DNA of 64,000 bases from Schmidtea polychroa (lineage: Eukaryota), in the NCBI GenBank assembly GCA_044892525.1, contig CM097885.1, positions 240,932,001-240,996,000 on the forward strand. Direction: 5' to 3'. This document shows, piece by piece, positions 10,799-64,000 of the stretch (the first letter of the stretch is position 1; each line of letters starts with the position of its first letter). Under the pieces are notes generated by a model, which did not search any database, was not told the origin of the DNA, and saw only the letters and a list, made by a program, of their open reading frames with translations. A program made the translations under genes and the position numbers.

Positions 10799-12157
10799 GG
10801 TATAAGTATACAATAGGGGGGCCACTTTTTTATAAATAAATATATATAGATATAAATATTTAAATATATTAAAGTAATTAAAACATAGTATAGTTCAAGT
10901 ATATATATTAAAAAGACTATCAAGTTACGTTTATATTTACTTGGTATTACACACCACCAAAATCATATTTTTCACGTATTTGATTGATTAATACATCAAA
11001 CGCACGCTCATTTCGACAAAATCTTCTTCTCCACATGAATTCATCTAAGTACGAAGGAATGAAGCTACATCTAGTCCCAAACATATACTTAAATTTCCTT
11101 TTACATAAGGCCCACGAACCTTCTATTCCATTGGTGTTAACGCCGGTTAGGGGATCAATAAAGTGTTCCGAGTGATTCACCCACTGGTGTACATACGGTC
11201 CCAGTCTAGCTAAAGGTGTAGGTGCATTTGGGTTTCGTCGGGGACCACCAGTATAGGTCGAGAATTCATCGGTCCAAATAGTCGTTCCCGGAAGTACAAC
11301 ACGCGAAAAAATCGGAAAAATTTCTTTTTGGGTCCTATTATCAACGAATTCAAAATGTACATTCTTCGTAGTATAGTCTAGAATTCCGAAAACCCACCCA
11401 CTGCGGGCATTCCCTCTCGGTTCGCCACGATTATGCAGCAAATTCATTAACTTGGACTCATCCGCTTGCACTATATGATCTACTCCACCAAACAATAAAG
11501 GTTGAGATACTAACTTCCAACTGGCAATATCTCTGAAATACTGGTACCATTGAATTATAGTTTTTTTGGAAATATCGGTGAAAAGCTGAACTTGTTTAAT
11601 GGAGCATTCCGCGCCCCAAAAATACATCAATAGAAAAAGCTCACGAATATGCAGTTTTGAATTACAAAAAAAACTCCCGTTTGTAATTGTTTGCTTGATT
11701 CGATGAGGATTTACGCGTGCCCGACTCCGGCAAACAAATATATATTCATTTACGACTTTGGAATCTTTAACTAGTTCCATAATACGCCCGCATCTCGCGC
11801 AGGTTGGATCGGCTCGTAACAAACCTACACTTTGGCAATGTCTTATCAAAGACAGTGTGTCTCTTGAAAGTTCATATATTTGCTTTAAATTCATGGCCTC
11901 ATATTTATATATATATATACGTTAAAGATTAATTAAAACATCTTTTAAATAAGGATATNNNNNNNNNNNNNNNNNNNNNNNNNNNNNNNNNNNNNNNNNN
12001 NNNNNNNNNNNNNNNNNNNNNNNNNNNNNNNNNNNNNNNNNNNNNNNNNNNNNNNNNNNNNNNNNNNNNNNNNNNNNNNNNNNNNNNNNNNNNNNNNNNN
12101 NNNNNNNNNNNNNNNNNNNNNNNNNNNNNNNNGGCCCCCCTATTGTATACTTATACC
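10799..12157 (-). mobile_element. Merlin (IS1595/ISXO2-like) DNA transposon
   Basis: TIR GGTATAAGTATACAATAGGGGGGCC at both ends; exact 8-bp TSD GTAACTTA at 10791-10798 and 12158-12165. Confidence 0.95.
10947..11894 (-). CDS. Merlin/ISXO2-like DDE transposase, 315 aa, uninterrupted
   Basis: N-terminal CxxCG zinc ribbon; VQADESK, WVFG, IWTDEFSTY and HQWVNHSEHFIDPLTGVNTNGIEGSW...K motifs. Confidence 0.93.
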   Translation of the reverse strand: MNLKQIYELSRDTLSLIRHCQSVGLLRADPTCARCGRIMELVKDSKVVNEYIFVCRSRARVNPHRIKQTITNGSFFCNSKLHIRELFLLMYFWGAECSIKQVQLFTDISKKTIIQWYQYFRDIASWKLVSQPLLFGGVDHIVQADESKLMNLLHNRGEPRGNARSGWVFGILDYTTKNVHFEFVDNRTQKEIFPIFSRVVLPGTTIWTDEFSTYTGGPRRNPNAPTPLARLGPYVHQWVNHSEHFIDPLTGVNTNGIEGSWALCKRKFKYMFGTRCSFIPSYLDEFMWRRRFCRNERAFDVLINQIREKYDFGGV

Positions 12158-13239: not shown

Positions 13240-13960
13240 TTGACTAATTGCCTGGTCTTAAAAAGGTATATAACATGATATGCGAAAATATTCTTCTGCA
13301 TTTGTAGTTGGAACATTGCATCGATGCATTTATCTCTTTGTCACTCGTGCTCCATAAGACTACGAGTGAAATAATGAATTCTGCTTCAGTTAAAGAGTTG
13401 AGCAACATTTTTGCTCCTGTAAATGAATCTCTGAATAACCATTCTGCAATTATTTCCAAAGAATGTATAACTGGCTATATAAGTGCTTTCATAATCTGTA
13501 TAGAATCATGGCGGTCTATCCATCGTGTTGGGCACAGTTTTTTTAAACTCACTTTTTACATTCAGGGATTAAAATACTTAATTGTTCTGAAAGTACGTCT
13601 TGTCTCGTGGGATAATTGAAAAAACTGTAAAAAGTTTCAATAGTTCCCATACAGTTACGTATGGAAGCATTGGAGTAAGCACTTGATATAGCTAGATTTA
13701 AGGAGTGGGAAAAACAATGCACATATATGGCTGTCGGGAATTGTTTTTGAATTAATTCTTGTATACCATTAAATTTCCCGCTCATGGAAGCTGCTCCATC
13801 ATATCCTTGTTCTCGCAGTTTTAGTAAATCCAAACCATATTTTTCTAAACTAGTTATAACTGTGTTAGCTAAAATTTTCCCAGTTGTAGAAATTAAGGGA
13901 ATAAATTTTAAGAATTTTTCATAAACCTTACGTCTCTGCAAACACAACAGTCACCCAGCT
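13240..13960 (-). mobile_element. Degenerate hAT transposase (ZMYM1/THAP12-like clade)
   Basis: KFLKFIPLISTTG...QGYDGAASMSGKFNGIQELIQKQFPTAIYVHCFSHSLNLAIS, then KKLCPTRWIDRHDSI; contains stops, and an N-run lies just upstream. Confidence 0.9.
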
Positions 13961-15414
13961 GTCCCGAAAAAGTTTTAAAGGAGACTCGACTGGTCTCAAC
14001 AGGTTTCTTAACTACATTTCAATAATATAGAAAAATATAATATGACAACACCGAACTATACATATGTAATACTACNNNNNNNNNNNNNNNNNNNNNNNNN
14101 NNNNNNNNNNNNNNNNNNNNNNNNNNNNNNNNNNNNNNNNNNNNNNNNNNNNNNNNNNNNNNNNNNNNNNNNNNNNNNNNNNNNNNNNNNNNNNNNNNNN
14201 NNNNNNNNNNNNNNNNNNNNNNNNNNNNNNNNNNNNNNNNNNNNNNNNNNNNNNNNNNNNNNNNNNNNNNNNNNNNNNNNNNNNNNNNNTTCATTTTACG
14301 ATATAGAATAATTATAATCTAAATTATAATCTAAATAATAAATCATTTTTAATTTGTAATAAATATATATATATATATTTTCAAAAATTGAAATTTAAAA
14401 ATTATTTAATTTAATAATCTAATACGTTTAAAAAGAACAATACAATATTATTTTTTATATTTCATCTAATCCATAGTTAGGTGTAAATTTTATAAAAATA
14501 AATTTTACTAAATTTATAAAATCTCCTAAATCTATTTTTAGTAACTAAATAGACGTCAGCTTAATTTTGTAGAAGACTTCGATTTTCTAATTCTAATTTT
14601 CGGGCTACGATAAAACTAAGGCAACTGATTGTCAAGTTGCTATTGGTCAGTGTGTTGAATCATTGTCCAGGAATAATGCCACATGTATACTGATCACTTT
14701 TTTTAAATTTATTCAATTGAGCTTAGCTAGACTTTATTAATAAGATTTTATTCAAAAATTCTATAATTTAATGATTTGATTTTCAGTTTTTACACATATT
14801 ATTTACGAATTTATTGGTAAAAAGTTTTGATTTTCATTAAATAATATTTCTGATACATACAGGCATCAGACATCAACACCCATCTGTGTGTATGAGAAGC
14901 AGACGATTTCTATTGGCTACTTAAAATTCATAAGAGAAAATTCATAGTTCTGAATGTGAAAAAAATATCCAAGATAAAATTGAGTGTTTCAAAATGAAGT
15001 AATGAAGATTTCATCAAATTTCTGCTTGCAAATAAATTTTACTCATTGTTTATTTGTAAGCAAAAATCAATTACCATTCGTGTGGAATTAATACCATCTG
15101 TTCAATTCGTTTCGTGAAAATTGTTGGAAATGCACTGAAGAATTTATTGGAAAAAAACTCGAAAGAATTACAATTTCTTCCTAACTTGTAGGATAGACGG
15201 AAATTTTCTTTGCTAAAATGCAAATTTCTCTTGAATTTTAGTTAATAATGACGTGGTATTTTTTATATTAGTAATTATTAATATTTTAGCGTGTGCATAC
15301 AAACTGAATTTTGTGTATGAAATGAAATGATTGATAAATGTTTATCTAACGATGCTTATATATTGTTACACCAATGGAATATAAATCATTTTGCATCTAA
15401 GAATTCTGAAGAAA

Positions 15415-16213
15415 ATGTCTAATTGCAAATCTCAACTGACAGATTTTGATTTCATTCGAATTTCAACTCCAGATTTAAACGGTTGTCACTTGTCAAAGCT
15501 TATCTCATCGCAACTTGCTCAACGTATTAAAAACAACGAAGTTGATTTATATGGTGGTGCTATAGCGCTAGGTCCAAGAACCCAATATGTGGCCATTGAT
15601 GAATTTAAAGAAAATAAATCCCGAAATGCTTTCTTTTTTCCCGACATGGACACTTTAAAACCAATCAAATGGGCAGACGATTTGGAGAGAGATTTCCATG
15701 TCGGTGATGTCATAGCAGACATGAAATGGGATGAAACGAGTCCAGTTGAATTTCATCCTCGAATTGTTGCAATAAAACAAATCCAGCGACTGGAAAAAAT
15801 GGATTTGGAATTATTTTCCGCTTTTGAACCAGAATTTAGGGCTTTTAAATTAGATTCATTTGAACCGTTTACTACTGGATTGGACATGAATAAAACGACA
15901 ATGCTAGCAAAATATGAAAAGTTTTTCATGGATTCTGTCACAAAACTTGCTGTAGCCGGTATAGACATACAGGATTGTTGCATTGAACATGGTGAAGGTC
16001 AGTTAGAAATGCCTTTATTACCCTCTTTTGGAATTTCTGCTGCTGATAAAGCTTTTCGATTCAAGCAAGGTATAAAGGAATTGGGTAAACATCACCAAAT
16101 GACTATAAGCTTCATGACAAAACCGTTTTTATCGGAGTCGAGCAGTGGCAATCATTTCAATCATTCATTATGGTATAAATCAACAAAGAGGAATGCTATG
16201 TTTGACGTAAAAG
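15415..16213 (+). CDS. Type-I glutamine synthetase / lengsin-like gene, exon 1
   Basis: FIRISTPDLNG...K, AFEPEF, IEHGEGQLE, FRFKQGIKE, FMTKPF..SSGNHFNHSLW. ATG at 15415; donor AAG|GTATGC, phase 1. Confidence 0.9.
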
Positions 16214-16305
16214 GTATGCAATATCTTTGATGAATATTGTATTTTAGTATCATAATAATATTTAAATATTGAGAACAAGTATAATTTCCTACAAATTAAA
16301 TCATA

Positions 16306-38800: not shown

Positions 38801-39268
38801 AAGGGTTCTGAACCTTTTCTGAGAATAAGGAAAAATAAGAACAAATCAGAACATAATTAATTAATATTATTTTATTTTTTATTATTACAGCCAGCCATTT
38901 CAAAAATCAATAATTCGTGTTAAATAAATTAAAAATAGTCTAAAGAAATTATGATAAATTTAAATGCAATATACCGGCTCATGTCAAACAACGAGAAATT
39001 GTTTTGAAAATTAGAAAATAAGTAAAATAGTTACAAAAAATTTGTTATTTGCGAAATAAAATTATTTTATATATCTTATTTGGAACCCATATTATAATAT
39101 ATTTAATGAATAATAAACAAATATTTTAATTACAATGAAAAAAATTCATCAAAAATTTGTTCTTGCCCCCAGAATTAAATAAAAGTTGAATTTTATAGAA
39201 ATTTATTTATCTTATAATCTTAAATATTAATTATAAATAATTTTTTAATTTAATATTAAATTTAATAG

Positions 39269-39795
39269 GTGAAGATAACTTGTCAGACCTTGCTTTGTAT
39301 TGGATAGGTGGACTCATCAAACATTTGTCAGCAATATCTGCCCTTTGTTGTCCAACAGCAAATTGCTATCGCCGCCTTCACAATTTTATTTCGCCTGGAT
39401 CTCTTAACTGGGATATAAATGACCGATTTTGCAGTATTCGCGTTAAAAATTTCAATGAGAAAAATACTTATATAGAAAATAGACTACCTTCGAGTGCAGC
39501 TTGTCCTTATCATGCTCTTGCTGCGACTATTGCAGCAGGAATTGATGGTATAGTTAATAAAATTTCTCCTCCTCCTAAAGGTGACAAATCTATGGGAGAT
39601 CTACCTACGACTTTCGAGGAAGCACTGAATATTCTTGATAAAGATAGCGTTATAAAAGAAGCCCTTGGTGAAAAATTTGTAAATTATTTCATTAAAATCA
39701 AAAGAGATGTGGATTTAGTTGAAATTTTTGGTAAGAAATTAAACGACCAAGAACAATTAGAGTCAGAAAGAAATCAGTACTTCGAATATATTTAA
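39269..39795 (+). CDS. Type-I glutamine synthetase / lengsin-like gene, exon 2 (joined product 441 aa)
   Basis: Acceptor TTTAATAG|GT restores the frame (G-EDNLSDLALYWIGGLIKH); then CPTANCYRRL, NDRFCSIRV, YIENRLPSSAACPY...IAAGIDGI. 799+527 nt = 442 codons. Confidence 0.88.
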
Positions 39796-49799: not shown

Positions 49800-50720
49800 T
49801 TCGTCTACGAAATGAACAGCGTTTTCGGCGTACGGTTATAGTTCATTTACTGGACTTGGGGTGCCAGATGAGTTGTTGATACAGTGTCTACTTTTCCATC
49901 TTTGTGTTGATTTCGGACAAAATAAGGTGAAATCGTTTCCAGCAATTTTACTTCGCTTACCAGTGGATCGTTATTTAGTCGGATATGGACTCTAAGTAGA
50001 ATTTCTTGATTATTATTTCGTAAGTATTCTGGAAGATCTTGACCTATTATTTATGATCTTTAGAAGTTGAACATTCGGTCATGTTGGGTAGTTTGTTGAA
50101 ACACAGGGAAGAGCTCTGATGGGCGAGTGCCGTGTTTAGGACTTTTTCCCAGTCGCTCTTATTGAACTTATATTCCATGAGTGCGAGGTTCATTGTTTTG
50201 AGAATTGTTCAATTCGTTCTCTCGCATTGATCGTTTTCTTGAGGGTGATATGGAGTATTTCTGCTTTTTACTACTCTATGACTTAGAAGGAAGTTTCGAA
50301 ATAATTGGCTCTCGAATTGAGAACCTTTATTGTTGTTGATACAGGATGGGGATCCGAGGAGTGTGAAAAGTGAAAGTAAATGACGAATAATGGTGGTTGT
50401 TTCCATGTTACTGCAGGGGAATGCAAATGGATATCTCGAATATTCGTCTACAGCTACGAAGATGTAGCGATTCTCTGTATAGCTCGATAGTGAACCAATG
50501 AAATCTATTGATAATCTTTTCCATATCTGTGTTGGGGGGGGGTGGTCTAAAGAAGCGTGGCTTAGGCAATTTACACGGCCGAAAGTTGTTTGTAATTTCT
50601 TTTATATCATGGATTGAATAATGGAGATTTTTCCTTTTACAGCAATGATATAAGCAGTTAATTCCGGAGTGGCAGAGTATTCTGTGTATAGTATTAATGG
50701 AGGCTAAATCTTGAATAGAA
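49800..50720 (-). mobile_element. Ty3/gypsy integrase relic
   Basis: HRILCHSGI zinc-finger part, then WKRLSIDFIGSL...RYIFVAVDEYSRYPFAFPC...NKGSQFES...TPYHPQENDQCERTN; frameshifted downstream. Confidence 0.9.
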
Positions 50721-52479
50721 GAGTGTTATTACTATTAAATGTATATAATAGTGAATATAATAATTCGTTATTTTCTTTTATTATTTGATAATGAGTTTTG
50801 TGTTGGGCTAGAACTGATTTCTAAACCCAAAGTTAGGAATGGGACGAAATGTGTCAGTACACAACACGCATACCCAGCATTAAGTTTACTTAAATAAAAA
50901 TATATAAAACACCAAGTAAACAATAATAATAGAGATAATATACCCAAAAATAAAACATCTGAATTAAAAATAAAATAAAACACGAGCAAGAAGTATTACA
51001 CGAAAACCTACTCAAATATAACCGAAAGACATAAAACAACAAAAAACAAATTCGAATAAAGGCGATTAGTAAAAATTAAAAAAGAAAATTAAAGAAAATC
51101 TTCATAAAATCTTACGTAAAGAAAATTATATCGATATTTTGAATAAAAATCCAGAACAATTCATAAAAATGGCGAAATCCATCATGACGGCCAAACGACC
51201 CAATAAAATTTATAAAAAATAAATATTTTAGTTTAAAAAATAAATATTATAGAAAAGAAATCATAAAAAACAATTTAAAAATAAGAAATAGATTGAATTT
51301 AGCATGGACTGTTCTGGAAATGCTGAAATCCATCATGAAGGCAAATTTAATAAAAAATAATTCGAAAATAAAATTTCAAAAATAAAAACAAAAATTCTTA
51401 CTAAAAAATCGCCATCAAAATCGATAAAAATTAAAAATCGAATGTTCGAGAATTAAAATAATCTGAATTTGTTTTAATGCATCAATGCACGCATGTATAC
51501 TTACACGTCAAACAGAGGCTATATAAACTGACACATTTCGTCACTTTGGAAGCAAGGGGAAAAAATGCAAATGAATATTTTTACTCTTATGCCAAATTTT
51601 TGGTTTTGATTTCTCTGAGATTGTAGGTAAGGACGATTTCATTGTGAATTATAAATTATTATTATTGAAAGCTTGTTTTCATTATTTCTTTTTAACTATA
51701 GAAATGTAGGTTTGAGTGAGATCGTCGGTTATCATTGATTTTGAAGCGAGATCCCAGCCAACCCTGCACCTATGCACTTTATCATCGATGATTAAACAGC
51801 CCACAATGATTGCAGGCCACTGCCTGGCACGCACTTATCAATATTATTTGTTTTTTTTTGTTCAGGTCATTCGGAGGTCGCACCACTTCATGGTTCTGCC
51901 ATGGAGTTAAGTCGATGAAATCCTCCGTCTGACTCTACCTATTTATTATAGGTCAGCCGTAAAGGGTTGACTTACCACACAACAGTAAGGTTTGTCGTAG
52001 TGGTCACAGTGGGGCCGCGAAAGCAAACACTCTTCCCGACTTTCAATGCATGAATAATTTACATAGTTAAAATCTACATCCAAAATCATCACAATACAAT
52101 ACACTAAGGTTAATAAACAGAGTAGATCTCAGACCTAAATTAATCACAACTCTACAATTCACAATTAATGTAGACGGTTAAATATCATCAAGAACCAAGT
52201 CTACCTATACGTTTGTCGAATCTAGATTTATAAATGTCTTAAATAAATTTTCTAGTAATAGTGTAAAGTAAAGATTTTTTAAAAATGATTGATTTAGTAG
52301 TGATAGTATTCATAAAGGTGTTCGACATGCGCATCAGCAAGACTTGGATTTTAAATTGAATAGACTCTAAACTAACTATAAAAATTCAAATCGTAAACCC
52401 ATAACAGTATAAATTATCCTCTCAATTTCATAAAAATGTGAATTATACTTATAGATTTAATTTCTTCAAAATATAAATT

Positions 52480-53110
52480 ATGATTAGTTATAAAGGTATA
52501 AATTATAAATTTAATTTCTTGAAATTATAAATTACAAATTTGTATTGACGATAAAAATTATAAATTATAACTCTAAGTTAATTATAAAAGTATAAATTAT
52601 AATCTTAACTTCATAAAAATATAAATTATAAAATTATATTAGCTTTGGAAATATAAACTATAAATTGAACTTCACCAAATATAAATTATAAACTTAAAAG
52701 TATAAATTATAAAATTATATGGGCTCTAAAATATAAACTATAAATTTAACTTCATCAAAATATAAATTATAAAATTATATTAGCTTTAAAATATAAACTA
52801 TAAATTTAACTTAACTTCATAAAATATAAATTATAAACTTAAAAGTATAAATTATAAAATTATATTAGCTTTAGAAATATAAACTATAAATTTAACTTTA
52901 TAAAAATATAAATTATAAAATTATATTAGCTTTAAAATATAAACTATAAATTTAACTTAACTTCATAAAATATAAATTATAAACTCAAAAGTATAAATTA
53001 TAAAATTATATTAGCTTTTAAAACATAAACTATAAATTTAATTTCATAAAAATATAAATTATAAACTTATATTAGCTGAAAGACTATAAATTATAATCTT
53101 AATTTGGTCA
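52480..53110 (+). repeat. AT-rich minisatellite (~55-65 bp units: AAATATAAATTATAAAATTATATTAGCTTT...AAACTATAAATTTAACTTCAT)
   Basis: Visible tandem array with short variant subunits (TATAAATTATAAACTTAAAAG). Confidence 0.9.
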
Positions 53111-54842
53111 TAAAAGTATAAAATATAAACTACGTTAGCGATAAAAATATAATCTATAATAAGTTGTAAATATTTTATAAATACCCCCCCCCCAAGTTAC
53201 GTAATGGTCGAAACAAATGTCCAGATACATAATCTAACTTATATATGTATATTTGAAACTTATAAAAGTATAACTTACCTTTTTCATGAGTACCCCCCTC
53301 AAACTATACATTAGTCGAGAACAATATATATAGCAATAAATTAACTTATATACGTGCAGTTATCAAACTTAATAATTCCTCAGATCACCTAACCATTAAT
53401 TATTGTCTAAATACATTAATACATTATCTTTACTATATAAATTTGGAAAATTTTGATAAATGACCCCCCTTAATTCATATAACCATCAACCACTACCTGA
53501 TACACTCAGTTAGACTATTTAATATATATACTTAACTTGGATTACCTTTAAAATCATAGTTGAAAATTTTTCATCAAAGACCCCCCAATAAACCATATCG
53601 TCATCAACTACTACCTAAATATACATTTAACTTATATAATATTTAAAAATATAAATTGTAAATTTTTATGAATGACCCCCTCAAAATTATACAGTCTTTA
53701 CCCATTACCTAAGCATACTAAATTAACTTATCTTAATATATATTTAACTTATATTATATTTTAAAATATAAATTGAAAATTTTCATAAATGACCCCCTTC
53801 AACTCATGTAGCCATTAACTATTCCTTAGGTATACTGAATTGTATCATCTTCGTATAGAGTTAAATTATATTTCAAACCAAAAAAATAATTCCATAAATT
53901 TTCGTAAATGATCCCCCCCCCCATATGTAGTAATCTTNNNNNNNNNNNNNNNNNNNNNNNNNNNNNNNNNNNNNNNNNNNNNNNNNNNNNNNNNNNNNNN
54001 NNNNNNNNNNNNNNNNNNNNNNNNNNNNNNNNNNNNNNNNNNNNNNNNNNNNNNNNNNNNNNNNNNNNNNNNNNNNNNNNNNNNNNNNNNNNNNNNNACT
54101 CTTACTATTATTATTACTATTATCATTATTATTATTATATTATTAAAATAATTATCTTTATTTCATAAAAATAAAGTTATAAAACAAATTATTGATTTTG
54201 GGATTCCCCTATCTCTAAATTTAGTTTCAATGGCCCTATCTTCCAATAAAATTACGGAAAATCACTAAAATCTATTTTTAGTAACACCCCCCCCCCCTGA
54301 AAACGACATCAATATTATTAATTTAAATTATATCCATATATGTATATATGTGTATATGTATGTGTATATATAAGTGGATGTGTGTATGTACATACCGATT
54401 TATAAAACAACCTTATAACAATACGATAACCTTCCCCCTCAAGACCCCTGTTATGTGATGGTCACAACCCCTTTAAGGTGATGGAACGAGGATAGAGTAG
54501 TTTACTGAAGTAATTTAGTAGAATCATTTATTAATTTATTAAAATTATTGGATTTATTTTTAACTAGATCAAAAGAAGAAAAAGAAAAACAAAGACTAAG
54601 TTTATTGATTTCGATCATCAAATTTATTCACATAATTGTTTCTTTGAATCATATTCATACCAAAAAGTCCTTCGAGCTCAGTTGATGGACCATCCCGATG
54701 AAATACATTTCCTGGGGTTGGAAAATGGAAAACTTATATTAAAATATCTTTCAGAATTTCTTTTAGATTTCCACAATTAAATAATTCCAAATTATTTCTC
54801 ACAAATATATTCGATCAAAAAGAATTTTAATATTTTATTTAA

Positions 54843-55511
54843 TTACAACATCCTGAATTTATTTCTTTGCTTGGCTGCTTTAAGATCATAAATGGGCATT
54901 TTTCATTTATTAATCGGATAAAATCAGTTTTTCTGTACAACCTTTACATTCTTCACCCCAGCTTTCTAATATTTTTTGAGATCTTTAACGCGAGCTTTGT
55001 TTAGATTAATACCAGTAAGATCAATAGGTTTGTCTGAAAAATAGTTGAATTAATATTTAAAATCTTAACTGAACATACCATATTTTAATTCACAAATTTG
55101 TGAATCAATTGCTTTTAGTTTTTCAAACTTTTTCAGCGGGCATAACCCAACTCAAAGGCTGAGACAAATGTTTTACAATATATGCAGTAGATGTTACCAA
55201 TCCTCCAATATAATAACACTAAAAATAAATTACAATTTTATAGTAATCAGTTATAATACCTTACCAGACTTTATTCTTTTCCTTTACTTGTTTTGCTCAT
55301 CTTTTTGAATTTATTTTCAATATTTTCGATATTTGTACTTTCATCTCCATCTAGACTATCTTTCAGGCGTCTCACAAACTTAACACAAACTGAACAATTT
55401 TTAAATATAATAAAAATAAGTGCCAAATACCTTCGCAATTATTTTCATTAACTGTAGCTGACATTACATAGTAAACAATGATTAGAAAAGAAAAACTGAT
55501 AAAATTTTCAT
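54843..55511 (-). pseudogene. MANF: MANF/CDNF (ARMET) homolog with three retained introns and multiple lesions
   Basis: [81 protein letters not shown]. Introns 55430-55390, 55264-55219 and 55078-55034. Three 1-bp homopolymer deletions, a 2-bp deletion and an in-frame TAA. Confidence 0.88.
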
Positions 55512-57859
55512 TGCAAAATATTACTAATATAAAAAAAATGGTTTGTTAAAAAAAATAATTAGTTAAAACAAGTTTAAAATACTTCAAACTGACGTATAAG
55601 TTTTGTTTAAAATGTAAGTAACGAGTATTGTAAAATTAATTTAATATTATTATAAATTTTGAATTAAAATTTTCTTAAAATTCTAGAAAAAAAAAATCTA
55701 CTATTAATAGAAAACAAATTTTTAAAAATAAATAAAGTTTGAGTCAATTTGAATTTTCTAGAAGTATCTCTTAAAATTATATAGGGAATTGTTTTGTAAC
55801 AGTTATTGATGTATTTTGAATTTATTTAACTTGAATTAAAAATATAATATTAACAAAAATGTATTGTGAGATTTTGATTGTTGATCTAACCATCTCTCTA
55901 TAACTACCCGGGCTCAACAAAGGGGAGTGTCATTGTAGGTCAACTAGGACAGTCATAGTCACCGCGAAATACGCTTAGTCAAATAATACGCGGTCATAAA
56001 CAATCATGGTTCTTGTAAAGTTATTATATTTTGTTGTTGTGGTTGGTGAAATTTCTGACCCTTATTTGTATGTTCACTAATATATAAGTTGTTTGTTTTT
56101 GATTATTTTCTAATTAAATTCATTATTCCCAAAAATTTCTTAAGGTATGTTTAATAAACTTTGGTTATGTTTCACTTAATTTATACTCAAACATGTTAGA
56201 TGGGGTATTGTATGAACAGGTTTTGATAGATTAATGTATGATTCCTGATGACTTATGATCGTTTGAGGATAGAAAGTTTGTATAGGCATAGTTGAGGAAG
56301 TGATTATAATAAGGGACCTGCGTAAATCGGACATACATCTTCTAACGATAGTCCGTGAACCCATTAGAGTGCTCGACAATTACAGTGCAAGTAGTGCGCT
56401 CACTTTTTGCGAGTACTCACCCTCTTGATACAGTACCAACGTTGATCGCTCAACGGGTATCAAGCGGTAAACAATGTTGTATCTTGGGTTACGCTGGTAA
56501 CAGCACTAAAGAGCAAAATATTTGATCATCAGTAACCCACCATACAAATTTTGGGGCTCAGCCGGGATTATAAACTTTCTTGGTAAAGAACCTGTAAGTA
56601 GACGGGAATGCATAGCGTTTTTATGATCAGGAAATTCTAAATAACTTGATGGAATTAACCGGCTACATTGTAAAGAAACTTGAAAATTCGTAAATTTAAC
56701 TAATAACTCACTACAAAGATTGAATGGAAAAGCAGAGTAGTTGGCAAACATCCAAGAAGGACTGATCTTAAAACCAAAACCAGTAGATGATGAATTGTGT
56801 ATAACGATGAGAATTGCTACATCAAAGGTGGAATTAACTACTCAAAGAGTATATCAGATTCAGAATTTACGTTTGGATAATGCCAAATTTAACATCAAAT
56901 GGCAAGAATTAAAGATAAAAATTGAAACGGTTGAAGATGCGATAAAAGAGGCGGTCGAGAATGAATTAAATGTTGTGTGTGCAGAGCAATGAGATAAAAA
57001 TAATGATGGTACCTTGAGGACATCTATGTTATTGCCAAGATTGTGCATTGAAACTGAAGCCATTGTAATGTATGTGATGCAAACGTGAGAGAAAGAGTAG
57101 TAGTGTACATCCCTAAGGGAGATGTAGAAAAATTAAAGATGATGAAATGAATTGCTGCTGAGTGTGAGTTAGTAAAAAGTTAGTAAAACTAATTCCATAA
57201 TAGCAACCGAAAGGTATAAAACATACGTTGAACATAGACATATGAAATACACAAAAGCCGTTAAATAAATAGACAAGCAACACACAAATTAAATTGGCGA
57301 AAGCCGTGAATTAAATACAGGACTGGCTGGGATCGCATCAAGTGTGAGCTGATCTATAAGATCAGTACGATTACCATTTTTTTTCCTGTTTTTGTTTTAT
57401 TATTTTTGGCATAGAGAGACAGGACCATAAGGGGATGAGAAGCATATCGTCCCTACGATGCTTACACGGATGGGGAAATCCTGATCACCTTGATGAGAAG
57501 AGTATAATTGGGCCCATCGCAAATGTTGGAGAGTTTCTGTCGAGTGACTGATCACCACTTGTGGGAAATGAACCAACTCGGTTATTATATTTTTTGAATT
57601 TGGGAGACTAGGACAAACTAGAAGCGTAAATAAAAAGAAAAAGATAAAAATAAAAATTGAAAATGTGCACCAAAAGATTAAAAATTAACATTATCCGAGA
57701 GCAGCTGCGGATTTGAAGAAACTGTTTTTGGACTTCAAATCGGATGAGGAGTACTCATTGATATGAATTTTTCCCTAGCGAGTGATGAGGCACCCGAGTA
57801 CAGCGGCTAACCACCGGACTGTAGTGTCCAGGAGATTATCAGCCAAGGGACTGATGATG

Positions 57860-58860: not shown

Positions 58861-59849
58861 CAGAGATCGCGCGAACCAAAGCATCGATGATTAACTATAA
58901 ACAAACGATTAAGATGAAATTGATTAAATTGAATAGATTAAGTGCGACAAAGATGTAATGAGTAAAGGAAAATTATGATAGAGCGCCGGCGCAAGAGAAA
59001 CTGAAACCAAATTTTTGAATGGGGAAAAGCGAATGAGGAGACATTAATTAAGTTACTGATGAGTTTTATATGTATATGACTAATGATATATATTTTCAAT
59101 TATATAATTGATGTTGTGATTATATGATAGATAATTGATACGACGATATAGATAATTCATATGAGTTATAGATAATTAAAAATGGACTTAAATTCAAAGG
59201 GGGTGAGTAACAAAAAGTAAAAGCGTACCATGAATTAGAAAAGGAACAACGAGAGAAATAATGAGTAAAGAGTAGTATAAAATAAGGGAAATAAGGAAAT
59301 AAATGAAGGGTAGGATAAAATGAATAAAATATTATGATATGTACTAGGAGTGTTAATTATTTTAGAATAAAGCAAACCATTCAGAAGGAAATCAATAGAA
59401 GCCAAGAATTCAAGAGTAATAAAGAGAAATCAAAAATTCAAAAGAAACCAAGCAAATAATCAAGAGAATCAAACGAGGATAGGAGAAAGGTAAACAAAGT
59501 CAAATTAAATACCAAGAGGAAAATTAAAGCGTTGGCCAACGAAACACAGTGAAATTCAAAAGAGATTATTAAAGCAAGAAAAATTGATAATAAAGCCAAT
59601 CGAACGAGATCGCAGAGCAAAGGAGGCTCTAGTTTATTAGGAAACGCAGGGAGACAAAGAGCCAAGAGAAACAGAAGAATCAATAAGAAACCAGCGTCAG
59701 TGAAAACATTATTTGAATCAGACAGCTTAACCAACGAAGGTGAAAACATCGACGATATTAAAAGAAACGAATTATATCCGGTAACTGATATCAAACCAAC
59801 AGACAAAGAAGATAGTAGTTCAGGCATAACAAGTTTGTGTCGAGATATA

Positions 59850-62800
59850 ATGTTAGACGGAAACCAAGTGAACAACCCGAATGGGTCAGAGTCGACATAC
59901 ACACCAGAGATAAACCATGTCAACGTCAATGTTGGAGAATTTAGAGAAAGATTTCGAGGAGAACCATTCGATGGGAATATTAATGAACTAGAAACGTTTA
60001 TAAAAGAATTCGAGGTATATATTACGATATGTCACTGGCCAGACATAGTCGTACGAGAGCGAATACCATTATATTTAAGAGGAAGTGCACAAGATGTATA
60101 TTTAGAGGCAAAGTGTGATGCAACAAAACTAAAAACATGGAAATCAATAAAGAATTTTTTAATAAAATCATTCGGTAGCAAAAGGGAAGTAAATCGCAAA
60201 ATGTTGGATTTTCTGCATCGAAAGCAGAAATACAATGAGTCAAACGCACTATATGCATGTGAATTAAGACGACTGGCAAAAGAAGCATTCGATTCAAATC
60301 AAACAGTTCCGGAAGACAAGATAATAGCCGTATTCGTAGAGGGTATAAAAAGAAAGGACATACGAGCAACAGTGGGTTGCCGAGCACCAGACACGCTCGA
60401 GGAAGCATTAAAAATCGCTAATAAATGTGAAAACTACTTGACTCCAGTACAAGTAGCAGCAATGGCAGCAGTACCAATAGCTACAACACCAACAACGACA
60501 ACCGAAATTAATCAAACCAACAATGAAAATCTAGGAATGAATCAATTTATCTCAGAATCGCAACAGTTGTTCAAGGCGCCAAAAGCGACAAATCCAGATA
60601 ACAGAGGTAATATTCAATTTTACACTAATAATTTCAGTAGCAACGAGAACAATAATCGGAAGTGTAACATATGTCAACGACTAGGACATTGGAGCAACGA
60701 GTGTTATAAGACAAGGATGTGCCAAAATTGCGGTAAAAGGGGTCACACAGAAAATATATGCCGAGGACCAATGATGTCGATGAGAGGAGGAAGGACTAGA
60801 ACCTGCTACAGTTGCAACCAACTTGGACATGTGGCGAGAGAATGCGCGATGAAGACAAAACATAATCAACCAAGAGCAAACGATCCAAGTCAAAATATAC
60901 AAATCAACATCATGCAGAAAATTGAACAGTTGAAAAAGATGATCCAACGGATACCAGAGGATATCCGGAAACGACCAACAAGAGAACAACAAGACCAGCA
61001 ACGAATCGAAGGGCAGAGACCACTAAACGAAAAAGCCAGAGAAATTCAAAAAAGATGGAAAAAGCGAGAAACCAACACCGGAAGAATAAATATGATGAGA
61101 TTAATGAACAAAGGGGAACCGCACACTGCGGAGCAGTGTGTTAACAAGGAAGGGAGCGATATGACCGTAATCAACGAGACAAAAGTGATAAAAGAAAATG
61201 GGTCACATCAATTGACGGAGCAATTGACAGAACTGAGTAGCGAGGATAAAATAAAAATAATACAAGGGTTCACCAAAGAAGAAAAAGAAAAGAGACGAAG
61301 AAGAGATGAAACAGGGCACGAACCAAAAAGCAACGAGATTGTTACAAAGAATCGAATTCAGAGGGTATTACTACAAAAAATTGAAAATAGAATTAGAAGA
61401 GAAGAACCAAATTTAACGGATGAGCAAGTAAAAGAAAAAGTAAAAGACAACTGGTTCAGGAAAAATGAGTGGTTCGAAAAGAAAGAACCAAGTAATAGAG
61501 CCAATATAAACATGCTGAGACAAATACAGAAGGATCAGACGGACCAGGAAGACGAGAAAAGTGCGGTGAGTAGCCTGAGAAGTGAATTATTTCAATCAAG
61601 TGATGAAAATAATGAACAAGGAACACCTCAAAATAACGAAGAGGGTGAGAGCGACGATATGGAATCACCGATAGAAAATGACGATGAGGAAATATTTGAG
61701 GAAATTTCCGACACGGTATCGGAAAGAGAACGAAATGAGAACTATATCAACGAACCAACATACAGAAAATGTATAAAACTGATAACTCAAGCATACCAGT
61801 GGGAAGGAGGTATATTAACGGCAATATGGAAAGATTTGGCGACGAAATATAAAGGAAAATTGAAAGAAGTTGATCCAGATCAATACCAAGTAAGTATTCA
61901 ACACCCTGAAACTCAGATGCAGATTATTGAATTAAAAGTAACAAATATCGATGAACTGTATAATTGGGTACAGGAAAAGATGGGAACAAGTCATAAGAAT
62001 AAACAACTATACGATAATGGTTACAAAGTTAAAATGAGCATACATCTAGTAGATATGATGAGATGGCCAAACGAAGTTAATATCTTAATCTTAAAGAAAA
62101 ACAGAGACAGCGAATCAGTAACGGAAATACTGAGGAAAATCCAACAGATATTCAACAATGAAGTGGAACCAGAAATAGAAAAGACTGAACAAAAGATAAT
62201 GAAGGAAAATCAAATAATCGTAGTAAAACAAGCAATCGATCAAGCGAAGAAATATATTAACAGATTTAGGGAAAGATGGCCGCAGCTAATGAAACAGTTT
62301 GTCAAAGACGTACGGGATACTGAGATTATGGGATTTGAATATAAACGAGCAACGGAGTTGATATCAAAATATGGTGAATACGAGAGAATCAGATGTGAAC
62401 AAGAATTACCATGGCCATCCAACAGAAAAGTGACAATAGTAAGAGAATCACTGAAGAATAGTCATTTAAATAAACACGAAGAAATGATCAAAACATCACA
62501 TGTCGAAGACGACATTTTTGGAAAAGGCCGGAGTGGAAAAAATGACAAAGACCATAACGACAAAAATGAGGAAGACGACGGGAACCATGAAAGGAACAAC
62601 ATAAATGGGAACTCAAACGAACGAGATAATGAAGAAGACAAGGAGTCAGAAGATGACGACGAAGACTTGAAGGATACTGAGGACAACTCAGACCAAAGTG
62701 AAGACAACCAACATAATGAAACAGAGAACGACAAACGAAAGTCCCCACTGCATAACATAGTAATGCGGAAGAATCTAAACCAGTCACTCCTACTACAAAT

Positions 62801-64000
62801 TATCCTAATAATACTAACGTCAATTTACCTAACAGAAACGAAAAATACGCGAATTACGAGAGGAAATCTGAAAGAAGGCGAACTATTCATGATAAAAGTC
62901 AGCGGCAACAACGGAAACGCGGTCGGGATATGCATCCAATTGATGGAAGGAACCGGAGTAAGTTGTGATTTTAGAACGATAACAAAAGGGAGGATTTTCA
63001 ATAGTCAAAATGGAGAACCTGAATTATGCGGAGACTACAACATTTGCGAAGACATAACATCAGAAGAAAAAGAATTGGAAAGAGCTAACGAAACCGGAGT
63101 ACATGGCGCAATTAAAGCTACAATGGAAGGTATCGAAATAATACATAAAGGAAATTTGCCAACAACGCAAATATGTTTTAGAGATGACGAAGACATATGT
63201 ATAACGGTGGACATGAAACGAGATCGCGAATTTTTTTGGACAAACGTAAAACCAAACACCAACATGGTGGTATGCGCAGGTACCCAGTCAATAGTGGTAT
63301 GTAAAGCAGTTAAAACCGCGCAAATAAAAAGCAGGCCAAAAAGTATGGCTAGTAAACGATATCAACCAAGGATCAAACCGGCAATTAAGAAACGCCAGAA
63401 ACAATCCCGTACGGAAATGATAAGAGGACAGCACCAAACCAAGAAAAACACAACAGTAATATGGATCAAAGATGAGAGACGAGAAGTACTAGTAAATGTC
63501 GAATTCAACAAGAAAAGAGAAGAAGTAATCACGGTCAGAAACCAAGGTGAAGAACCAATAGTAAGAGTATGTGTACTAAACAGGACAGGAATAGTCGACT
63601 GCATAGAAACACTACTTGACAAAGGTGCAGAAGTTAAAATGACAATAGGAGAAAGAAAGGGACGATACCACATATGCGTTCTTAAAAACGGAAGCGATTT
63701 AAGTTCATGCCAAGCAATAACCAGACAACGACCACGGATGATAAACATACTATTGACAACCAAAAAACCAAAAGAAGTGGAAAAGCCAAAAGGAAACGAA
63801 CATCTAACGGCAGAAGAAACGAAACAGTTATACCAGATGCTCAAGAAAAATAAAACACAAGAGGCAACTACAACAGAAACTAAAATGATGATAACGACAG
63901 GAAAATTCAACAACGAGACACTGATAACCGTTAAAATGATGTGGATCGCTAGCGCAATAATGAGTGCAGTGATAACATCAATAATAATCCAATGGATAAG
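59850..64000 (+). CDS. Giant Ty3/gypsy polyprotein, 5' part: gag capsid, 3 CCHC knuckles, long charged region and a membrane glycoprotein-like module; runs off the window (>1380 codons)
   Basis: Frame open from 59553 (ATG 59850) to the window end by manual translation. PFDGNINELETFIKEFE...IPLYLRGSAQDVY...RKQKYNES...FVEGI...TLEEALKIA capsid; knuckles CNICQRLGHWSNEC, CQNCGKRGHTENIC and CYSCNQLGHVAREC (60663-60845). Absent from the ORF track, consistent with no stop inside the window. Confidence 0.9.
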   Translation, partial: MLDGNQVNNPNGSESTYTPEINHVNVNVGEFRERFRGEPFDGNINELETFIKEFEVYITICHWPDIVVRERIPLYLRGSAQDVYLEAKCDATKLKTWKSIKNFLIKSFGSKREVNRKMLDFLHRKQKYNESNALYACELRRLAKEAFDSNQTVPEDKIIAVFVEGIKRKDIRATVGCRAPDTLEEALKIANKCENYLTPVQVAAMAAVPIATTPTTTTEINQTNNENLGMNQFISESQQLFKAPKATNPDNRGNIQFYTNNFSSNENNNRKCNICQRLGHWSNECYKTRMCQNCGKRGHTENICRGPMMSMRGGRTRTCYSCNQLGHVARECAMKTKHNQPRANDPSQNIQINIMQKIEQLKKMIQRIPEDIRKRPTREQQDQQRIEGQRPLNEKAREIQKRWKKRETNTGRINMMRLMNKGEPHTAEQCVNKEGSDMTVINETKVIKENGSHQLTEQLTELSSEDKIKIIQGFTKEEKEKRRRRDETGHEPKSNEIVTKNRIQRVLLQKIENRIRREEPNLTDEQVKEKVKDNWFRKNEWFEKKEPSNRANINMLRQIQKDQTDQEDEKSAVSSLRSELFQSSDENNEQGTPQNNEEGESDDMESPIENDDEEIFEEISDTVSERERNENYINEPTYRKCIKLITQAYQWEGGILTAIWKDLATKYKGKLKEVDPDQYQVSIQHPETQMQIIELKVTNIDELYNWVQEKMGTSHKNKQLYDNGYKVKMSIHLVDMMRWPNEVNILILKKNRDSESVTEILRKIQQIFNNEVEPEIEKTEQKIMKENQIIVVKQAIDQAKKYINRFRERWPQLMKQFVKDVRDTEIMGFEYKRATELISKYGEYERIRCEQELPWPSNRKVTIVRESLKNSHLNKHEEMIKTSHVEDDIFGKGRSGKNDKDHNDKNEEDDGNHERNNINGNSNERDNEEDKESEDDDEDLKDTEDNSDQSEDNQHNETENDKRKSPLHNIVMRKNLNQSLLLQIILIILTSIYLTETKNTRITRGNLKEGELFMIKVSGNNGNAVGICIQLMEGTGVSCDFRTITKGRIFNSQNGEPELCGDYNICEDITSEEKELERANETGVHGAIKATMEGIEIIHKGNLPTTQICFRDDEDICITVDMKRDREFFWTNVKPNTNMVVCAGTQSIVVCKAVKTAQIKSRPKSMASKRYQPRIKPAIKKRQKQSRTEMIRGQHQTKKNTTVIWIKDERREVLVNVEFNKKREEVITVRNQGEEPIVRVCVLNRTGIVDCIETLLDKGAEVKMTIGERKGRYHICVLKNGSDLSSCQAITRQRPRMINILLTTKKPKEVEKPKGNEHLTAEETKQLYQMLKKNKTQEATTTETKMMITTGKFNNETLITVKMMWIASAIMSAVITSIIIQWI

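Follow-up and report, generated by a model that had tools for sequence, protein, structure and literature searches.

Organisation of the locus

The window, i.e. the whole stretch of 64,000 nucleotides of Schmidtea polychroa DNA that was analysed, contains the 5' part of an LTR retroelement with a total length of 20.9 kb, whose features are all located on the + strand. According to the LTR alignment, the 5' LTR (50801..56542; 5,742 bp, TG...CA) is the longer of the two by ~470 bp; the 3' LTR closes the element outside the window (G000:C1:240998435-241003706), and the two differ by 11 substitutions in 5,271 aligned bases. The element is flanked on both sides by the 4-bp target duplication TTTG. 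Its primer-binding site (56551..56568), 8 bases past the LTR, shows one difference from that of a full-length neighbour, which is described below; in sibling copies, the site is the same as the neighbour's in 10 of 10 cases.

A single long reading frame is open stop-to-stop from 59553, with the first ATG at 59850, and is still open at the end of the window. It was described as giant in the first-pass annotation, a description that is not borne out, as the stop codon follows only 295 bases beyond the window (G000:C1:240996295) and the product comprises 1,481 aa from the ATG. The 99 codons ahead of this ATG (59553..59849) are open, conserved (dN/dS 0.36-0.39 vs three full-length copies) and possibly translated, so that the true start of the ORF may lie upstream of 59850. 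The Gag part (59850..60845) is recognised by Pfam as Retrotrans_gag (E 2e-5; capsid match 60066-60350) and zf-CCHC (E 7e-10), with three CCHC knuckles starting at 60663, 60720 and 60804 (60663-60845), which confirms the capsid and knuckles noted earlier. It is followed by the charged post-Gag region of Burro ORF1 (60885..62405), which has 74% identity to the full-length family, belongs to no known family and matched no Pfam family above the cut-off. In this region, I-N-M/I-M/L motifs recur (whole-ORF count 4 vs a shuffle mean of 0.19), which are inferred to be candidate protease sites. The first-pass annotation was also right in finding neither protease nor reverse transcriptase in the frame: no PR motif was found in the window ORF, and extending the sequence to search for PR-RT-RH-IN and the 3' LTR revealed the LTR, while the interval between stop codon and 3' LTR contains no long ORF and no pol.

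The origin of this ORF becomes apparent from the neighbour, a full-length Burro element downstream of the window element, with a length of 35 kb, LTRs of ~4.8 kb and an ORF1 of ~4,790 aa in the order Gag-MATH-Env(gB type)-PR-RT-RH-IN-ankyrin-signal-ectodomain-TM, accompanied by accessory ORFs (TRAF, BIR-RING, coiled-coil). In size, ORF1 domains and accessory ORFs, it resembles the Burro/GYPSM1 giant gypsy elements of planarians, as far as these are portrayed in the Burro section of PMC6431247. The features of an intact Burro (ORF1 of ~4,800 aa, PR-RT-RH-IN, MATH, ankyrins, >30 kb) are present in the neighbour family and not in the window element, which has neither Env nor pol, no ankyrins and no intact accessory ORF. 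Its Gag is homologous to that of the neighbour's ORF1, in agreement with the earlier suggestion of a Burro-type gypsy element, and its capsid shares 88% identity with the full-length family at a dN/dS of 0.07. Residues 10-852 (73% identity) and 865-1468 align to opposite ends of ORF1 in the neighbour; the window ORF thus corresponds to a neighbour-type polyprotein minus ~3,200 internal residues with the frame kept. Env, PR, RT, RH, IN and the ankyrins were taken out by two in-frame deletions, between which a MATH-domain island of ~26 codons remains (62406..62483; protein score 73 vs a shuffle maximum of 47). Dating the deletion from this island was rejected, since it is too short (20 codons). 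Both junctions are bridged by contigs from two public runs of one study, so that they are not an assembly artefact. The window ORF is covered by contigs of four runs that are presumed to be of RNA.

A young family and its likely helper

The junction pattern occurs 113 times in the assembly, the pattern on its left side 114 times and that on its right side 117 times, which means that the assembly holds no close pol-bearing parent. In total, there are ~115 copies of the derivative and ~265 full-length copies, all of them young. An ectodomain motif searched with synonymous degeneracy gave 381 copies, with two sequence types among the first 100, and 10 minor variants that were fetched were all of the full-length type. 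None of 40 fetched derivative copies contains a pol match, and the whole frame is intact in 13 and broken in 27 of them. Of 10 copies examined, the eight with both flanks in view each have their own perfect 4-bp duplication, and LTR divergence is 0-0.04% in seven copies. The derivative is a young, LTR-bounded family with independent recent insertions, and it represents a new Gag-retaining non-autonomous form of the known Burro element.

The 40-mer preceding the 3' LTR is identical in the derivative and the full-length family (core: 364 exact copies), and the two also have primer site and LTR ends in common, in the presence of ~25% sequence difference. On the basis of the shared cis signals, the full-length Burro family is the likely helper of the derivative. 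A related situation is known from the TR-GAGs (PMC8704663), which likewise have two LTRs and one ORF with Gag but no pol, show new insertions and probably have their helper in a related autonomous element; as portrayed there, these are small plant elements that encode Gag alone, in contrast to the derivative, which is a 21 kb animal element derived from an enveloped one and whose Gag ORF continues into a predicted membrane glycoprotein. The derivative also differs from the errantiviruses with an Env of HSV/gB type and a GAG-ENV-POL order (PMC13524379), as it lacks this Env. Among the six errantiviruses listed, Smed_errantivirus_6 is closest to the Env of the helper (by eye, 42 of the 62 first columns). 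That paper is a catalogue of intact elements, and its main text does not use the terms Burro, non-autonomous, fibronectin or accessory; similarly, neither a membrane module at the C-terminus nor a family of non-autonomous elements is mentioned in the Burro section of PMC6431247. Our literature search found no description of the derivative family or the module, although Grohme 2018, Jurka 2007 or Repbase may contain one. Burro is listed twice in the ISEV2023 abstract book.

The predicted C-terminal membrane module

The C-terminal part of the ORF begins with an acidic linker (62505..62744), which is placed after the ankyrin repeats in full-length elements. An internal signal-like hydrophobic segment is predicted at 62775..62843 from hydropathy and is conserved in the full-length family, and a transmembrane helix is predicted from hydropathy and charge at 63936..63998, followed by a cytoplasmic tail of ~90-98 aa that lies mostly outside the window. 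The sequences LLLQIILIILTSIYL (62787-62831) and MMWIASAIMSAVITSIIIQWI (63936-63998) each reach 1.8 over a Kyte-Doolittle 19-mer and are the only peaks above 1.4 in the whole protein, so that both segments proposed in the first-pass annotation stand. The 368 aa between them contain 12 Cys and six sequons, as counted previously; Cys are enriched relative to aa 346-972 (12/368 vs 3/627, Fisher p=0.0008), while the sequon number is not above chance (6 vs a shuffle mean of 3.2, P=0.09). A basic cluster is expected after the transmembrane segment of a type I protein, and eight K/R are present within 20 aa after the second hydrophobic segment. A signal-ectodomain-TM layout is therefore predicted from hydropathy, Cys, charge and fold.

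The predicted Cys-rich ectodomain (62844..63935), all 12 Cys of which are retained in the full-length family, can be divided into unit A1 (62871-63086), to which no fold was assigned, unit A2 (63090-63323), which is followed by a basic linker, and unit B (63471-63734), which is followed by a stalk. Folding of the whole module gave a pLDDT of 36 with unit B as the only ordered part. The separate model of unit B, whose alignment took in family-c and A2 rows, has a pLDDT of 82.8 and seven strands. In structure comparison, the best match was VIA (Z 9.5, rmsd 2.6, 76 aligned), followed by the IL-12 receptor complex (Z 8.0) and IFNAR2 D2 (Z 7.5); Foldseek against PDB and BFVD gave no match at E<=0.001, nor did Pfam detect fn3 or Ig in unit B. 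The seven-strand sandwich is what unit B shares with the Ig-like/FN3-like beta-sandwich domains, of which it matches many that are tied and mutually unrelated. From its model, unit B would be a generic Ig-like sandwich with no specific family assignable. Unit A2 shows a weak similarity to it, with four Cys in register and an hhalign probability of 6% (E 0.006).

A module of signal, beta-domain and TM is found at the end of ORF1 in four full-length families of this assembly. The derivative module has a modest similarity to that of family c (score 85, 0/1000 shuffles; 75, 5/1000), and no similarity to the module of a related compact family was detected. Outside this genome, word-indexed searches (near and longer lengths, domain alignment) gave nothing and a HMMER search of 1.84 billion representatives gave no match, both in collections in which eukaryotic repeats are poorly represented. 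The PDB sequences yielded one match with an E of 1.4 and Pfam none, fusion-protein families included. In 8 of 8 full-length copies examined, the module lies after integrase and ankyrin, which is its native place.

Selection, alternative readings and significance

Taken together, the ORF probably arose from the Burro ORF1 polyprotein by internal deletion with the frame kept, and belongs to a young non-autonomous LTR family of ~115 copies, which is likely to borrow protease, reverse transcriptase and integrase from full-length Burro. The derivative would be transcribed from its own 5' LTR, and the product would be Gag joined to a predicted type I membrane protein, whose topology would be unaltered since two membrane crossings (Env signal and TM) were lost in the deletion. 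The helper protease would then cut Gag free, and the freed Gag may favour the packaging of its own RNA, an advantage that has been proposed for elements encoding only Gag. Within the derivative, the Gag half shows weak purifying selection (47/90 vs 109/307 for singletons, p=0.08), and one replicated pair of copies also has a common Gag-half frameshift, so that an advantage of Gag in cis is at most tentative.

The ectodomain is under purifying selection in the full-length family (dN/dS 0.19) and looks neutral in the derivative (~1; 1.3 in 8-copy subsamples). Shared variants, synonymous to nonsynonymous, number 17/48 in the derivative and 13/6 in eight full-length copies (Fisher p=0.002), although the counts are small and the copies recombine. 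For this analysis, low-identity stretches of the derivative were masked; distance and tree analyses left out 5 of 41 rows (L024, L026, L033, L037, L042), which are truncated or interrupted. A Cys1287 variant in three copies and a "stop 59" in five were discarded as alignment artefacts. Two pairs of independent insertions (L028/L038 and L040/L049) each have a common ectodomain lesion, which indicates that a copy does not need the module in cis. In full-length Burro, this module probably serves as an accessory glycoprotein at the surface, built of Ig-like units, for attachment or host signalling, and in the derivative relaxed selection has most likely left it a passenger; a function in spread from cell to cell, as suggested in the first-pass annotation, is not favoured for the derivative.

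It is conceivable, if unlikely, that the derivative is instead a satellite or defective-interfering provirus for which both Gag and surface protein are useful, either by placing an attachment protein of its own on particles for which the gB-type Env of the helper carries out fusion, or by blocking the helper's receptor. This would fit with the four full-length families whose ORF1 ends in such a module, and with the 12 Cys, signal, TM and tail, which are all kept between the families at a dS of ~1 (dN/dS 0.29). Furthermore, no family-wide frame lesion occurs in the 584 codons of the module as opposed to at least five in ~305 codons of accessory remnants (p ~0.005), so selection maintained the frame during some of the lineage's history, possibly after the loss of pol, and a dN/dS near or above 1 could mask positive selection on a surface protein. 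However, the dead accessory remnants themselves show a dN/dS of 0.2-0.3 between families, which places the constraint mostly before the deletions; for this reason, the between-family value was not accepted as proof that the module functions in the derivative. In addition, recent module variants look neutral, and replication has occurred in copies whose module is broken. Still more doubtful is the extended proposal of a two-part Burro surface apparatus, consisting of the gB-type fusogen and, released by cleavage from the end of the same polyprotein, a separate Ig-like attachment protein, in which the pol-less and env-less satellite of ~115 copies keeps capsid and a diverged attachment protein in order to redirect or jam helper particles.

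The model of the first-pass annotation, in which gag and a downstream pol would enclose a second or novel envelope, is highly improbable. The layout of signal, ectodomain and TM in frame with Gag stands as a prediction, and Burro itself offers a precedent, as its Env, a gB-type fusion protein, is already published as lying in frame between gag and pol (Burro section of PMC6431247). However, pol is absent here and in 40 of 40 copies, and the position of the module after integrase in full-length copies refutes that upstream of pol. Nor does the identity as an envelope hold: the real Env is a different region, matched by PF24664 in a full-length copy (E 4e-68), which is deleted in the derivative and has no match in the window ORF or the module; the Pfam fusion-protein families do not match the module either, and the Ig-like sandwich of unit B is small. 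A host gene domesticated from Gag, which a lack of downstream pol had been taken to indicate and with which a long intact ORF would agree, has a negligible probability in view of 113 dispersed copies with near-identical LTRs and target duplications, 27 of 40 of which are broken.

The reading of the locus is thereby corrected from a new envelope position to a parasite that probably depends, for a helper, on one of the largest retroelements known. With ~115 derivative and ~265 full-length copies, which are young and have their cis signals in common, the competition between helper and parasite becomes readable from one assembly. In addition, the analysis points to the end of Burro ORF1 as encoding a second, predicted membrane protein, which is present in four full-length families and was encountered in none of the papers searched. 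Should this protein act with the gB-type Env as its attachment partner, it would bear on the cell-to-cell movement of Burro in animals with somatic stem cells.

Structure of the window element

The open frame, the knuckles, both hydrophobic segments and the 368-aa spacer with its 12 cysteines and six sequons are all as described in the first-pass annotation (G000:C1:240932001-240996000; genome of 781 Mb). With the sequence beyond the window end included, the ORF comprises 1,481 aa; a frameshift close to the stop, private to this copy, sets its last ten codons (just beyond position 64000) apart from those of 13 intact siblings. Extension of the window, which had been proposed in order to find pol and the 3′ LTR, yielded the latter 2.4-7.7 kb past the window end, but no pol, and no long ORF follows the stop in the following stretches examined. 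LTR comparison placed the 5′ LTR at window positions 50801-56542. The element measures 20.9 kb and is flanked by a TTTG target duplication, and its LTRs differ by 11 substitutions in 5,271 bases. Within the 5′ LTR, about 470 bases (window 53623-54097, partly masked) are missing from the 3′ LTR; LTRs of sibling copies range from 4.9 to 5.4 kb.

Nearby features are two exons from a glutamine synthetase-like host gene (Pfam PF00120; window 15385-16227 and 39241-39792, plus strand) and, on the minus strand, an IS1595-like DDE transposase ORF (10950-11921), a DUF4371 fragment (13552-13950) and an integrase fragment beside the 5′ LTR (50212-50601).

Origin from Burro ORF1

At 21-56 kb past the window end, the minus strand carries a full-length Burro copy of 35,076 bp (G000:C1:241017296-241052371, stretches L014-L017), which is young, with LTRs 99.8% identical and an AATG duplication. 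Its ORF1 encodes, in order, Gag, three knuckles, a charged region, MATH, a gB-type fusion protein, PR, RT, RNase H, integrase, ankyrins, an acidic linker and the signal-ectodomain-TM module, in which this copy carries one frameshift; TRAF, BIR-RING and two coiled-coil ORFs follow downstream, and a final ORF begins with a signal-like segment. This layout fits Burro as published, where an in-frame Env between gag and pol was already reported (PMC6431247), and the homology of the window ORF to this ORF1 bears out the suspected resemblance to Burro. Among the full-length copies listed, 41 of 86 have frames of at least 4,770 codons, and the module is the C-terminal end of a 4,778-4,802-codon frame in all eight long-frame copies examined. 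Between the two elements, L013:7285-8836 (minus strand, beyond the window end) holds fragments of another gag with several knuckles, together with the start of an LTR akin to the LTRs of the window element's family.

Residues 10-852 of the window ORF match the start of the neighbour polyprotein (73%) and residues 865-1468 its end (54-57%). Between both matched parts lies a MATH-domain island of about 26 codons (score 73 against a shuffle maximum of 47), which therefore indicates two in-frame deletions that removed about 3,200 residues; the module is thus the C-terminus of Burro ORF1, now placed beside Gag. The bulk of the accessory ORFs was lost in a third deletion, with broken remnants still in place; 38 of 40 copies have its junction. 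The model of an envelope upstream of pol was consequently rejected, as pol is absent and the real Env, gB-type and on the Gag side of pol in the neighbour, has been deleted.

The derivative family and its probable mobilisation

The Gag-module junction pattern has 113 occurrences in the genome; patterns specific to the family to the left and right of the junction have 114 and 117. The sample comprised 40 of 100 listed junction places, spread over four chromosomes; no pol match was found in these 40 copies, and 13 of them keep the whole frame. Across the ORF, 36 copies differ from each other by a median of 2.2%. Among ten copies examined at their ends, LTR divergence is 0-0.04% in seven, and all eight with both flanks visible carry different, perfect 4-bp duplications. 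A domesticated host gene was rejected, since this is a 113-occurrence LTR family with recent insertions that have their own target duplications.

The derivative and the full-length family have the same LTR ends, the same primer site and the same 40 bases 5′ of the 3′ LTR, but the LTR interiors are just 67-80% alike where alignable. The core of the 40-mer has 364 exact copies, close to the 381 of a shared ectodomain motif. Two sequence types of this motif are present among the first 100 matches listed, and its minor variants are of the full-length type in ten of ten cases, at 68-70% identity with the derivative; the motif variants and junction-side patterns of the assembly revealed no closer parent. 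Trans-mobilisation by the full-length family, the likely helper, would be the natural inference from these sequences. The 40-mer itself (L012:2395-2434, directly 5′ of the 3′ LTR beyond the window end) is GC-rich, hairpin-forming and identical in derivative and helper; it stands in place of a polypurine tract, none of which precedes the 3′ LTR, and plus-strand priming may be unusual. At the other end, 99 in-frame codons 5′ of the first ATG (window 59553-59849) are open in both families, with a dN/dS of 0.36-0.39; initiation of translation may use a non-ATG codon or depend on a spliced leader.

We regard the window element, with good though not full confidence, as a Burro derivative that retains Gag and depends on a helper. 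Transcription from its 5′ LTR would give a message for a Gag-linker-membrane protein, the helper protease would cut this protein at recurring I-N-M-M-type motifs, and the element would be copied by the RT of the helper and inserted by its integrase. The motif I-[NC]-[MLI]-[ML] is found at window 60903, 61086, 61506 and 63741 and at domain borders of the full-length ORF1, i.e., four times in the window ORF against a shuffle mean of 0.19 and five times in a helper copy against 0.53. It also occurs in another full-length family (c), is absent from a compact family, and is a candidate protease site. In this it would resemble TR-GAG elements (PMC8704663). The derivative is a descendant, not an intact member, of Burro and of the gB-type GAG-ENV-POL errantiviruses (PMC13524379). 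Passages of PMC8532177 and PMC11410931 name Burro without its structure. The papers searched, which did not include Grohme 2018 (main text or supplements) or Repbase, both possibly relevant, contained no description of the derivative family or the C-terminal module.

Nature of the module and selection on it

Hydropathy, the excess of cysteines and a cluster of basic residues after the TM segment are consistent with a type I membrane protein that uses an internal signal, and all 12 ectodomain cysteines are kept in the full-length family. Three further full-length families have an ORF1 ending in a signal-beta-domain-TM module (L082:5776-6660; L097-L099; L076:4687-5763; L101; other stretches of the assembly). 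The second giant family (c, at least 150 copies) has a homologous but shorter module; in two compact families the arrangement recurs without detectable similarity. Ectodomain unit B is predicted as a seven-strand sandwich (pLDDT 82.8). Its best structural match reaches Z 9.5 (rmsd 2.6, 76 aligned) and cytokine-receptor domains Z 7.5-8.0, and the top matches are tied, unrelated Ig-like domains. The proposed fold check thus found an ordered, Ig-like unit, but no Foldseek match at E<=0.001, and in the model unit B is Ig-like outside any assignable family. Fold and structural comparison gave no sign of fusogen traits in it. A weak alignment suggests that A2 and B may be diverged repeats of one another, and no ordered fold was obtained for unit A1.

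Between derivative and full-length family, the ectodomain has a dN/dS of 0.29 at a dS of about 1; the dead accessory remnants are equally low (0.2-0.3), and this constraint therefore mostly reflects the autonomous past. It seems unlikely that the derivative retains the module for attachment or interference of its own. Such a role would agree with the lack of any family-wide lesion in the 584 codons of the module, as against at least five in about 305 codons of the remnants (p ~0.005). The 13 copies scored were picked for an intact frame, but no such copy would exist had a lesion been common to the whole family. Depending on the order of the deletions, the selection behind this contrast may have acted before or after the loss of pol. 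Ectodomain variants within the derivative, however, look neutral: pairwise dN/dS is 1.02 (14 intact copies) as opposed to 0.19 within the full-length family, and shared variants (17 synonymous, 48 nonsynonymous) stand in the ratio seen for singletons (p=1.0), unlike those of the helper (13 and 6; p=0.002), a contrast with which equal-size subsamples agree. Two pairs of independent insertions also share an ectodomain lesion. The Gag half shows weak constraint within the derivative (dN/dS 0.26-0.5; p=0.08 against singletons). In the derivative, the surface module is thus likely a passenger, and in the helper likely an accessory glycoprotein.
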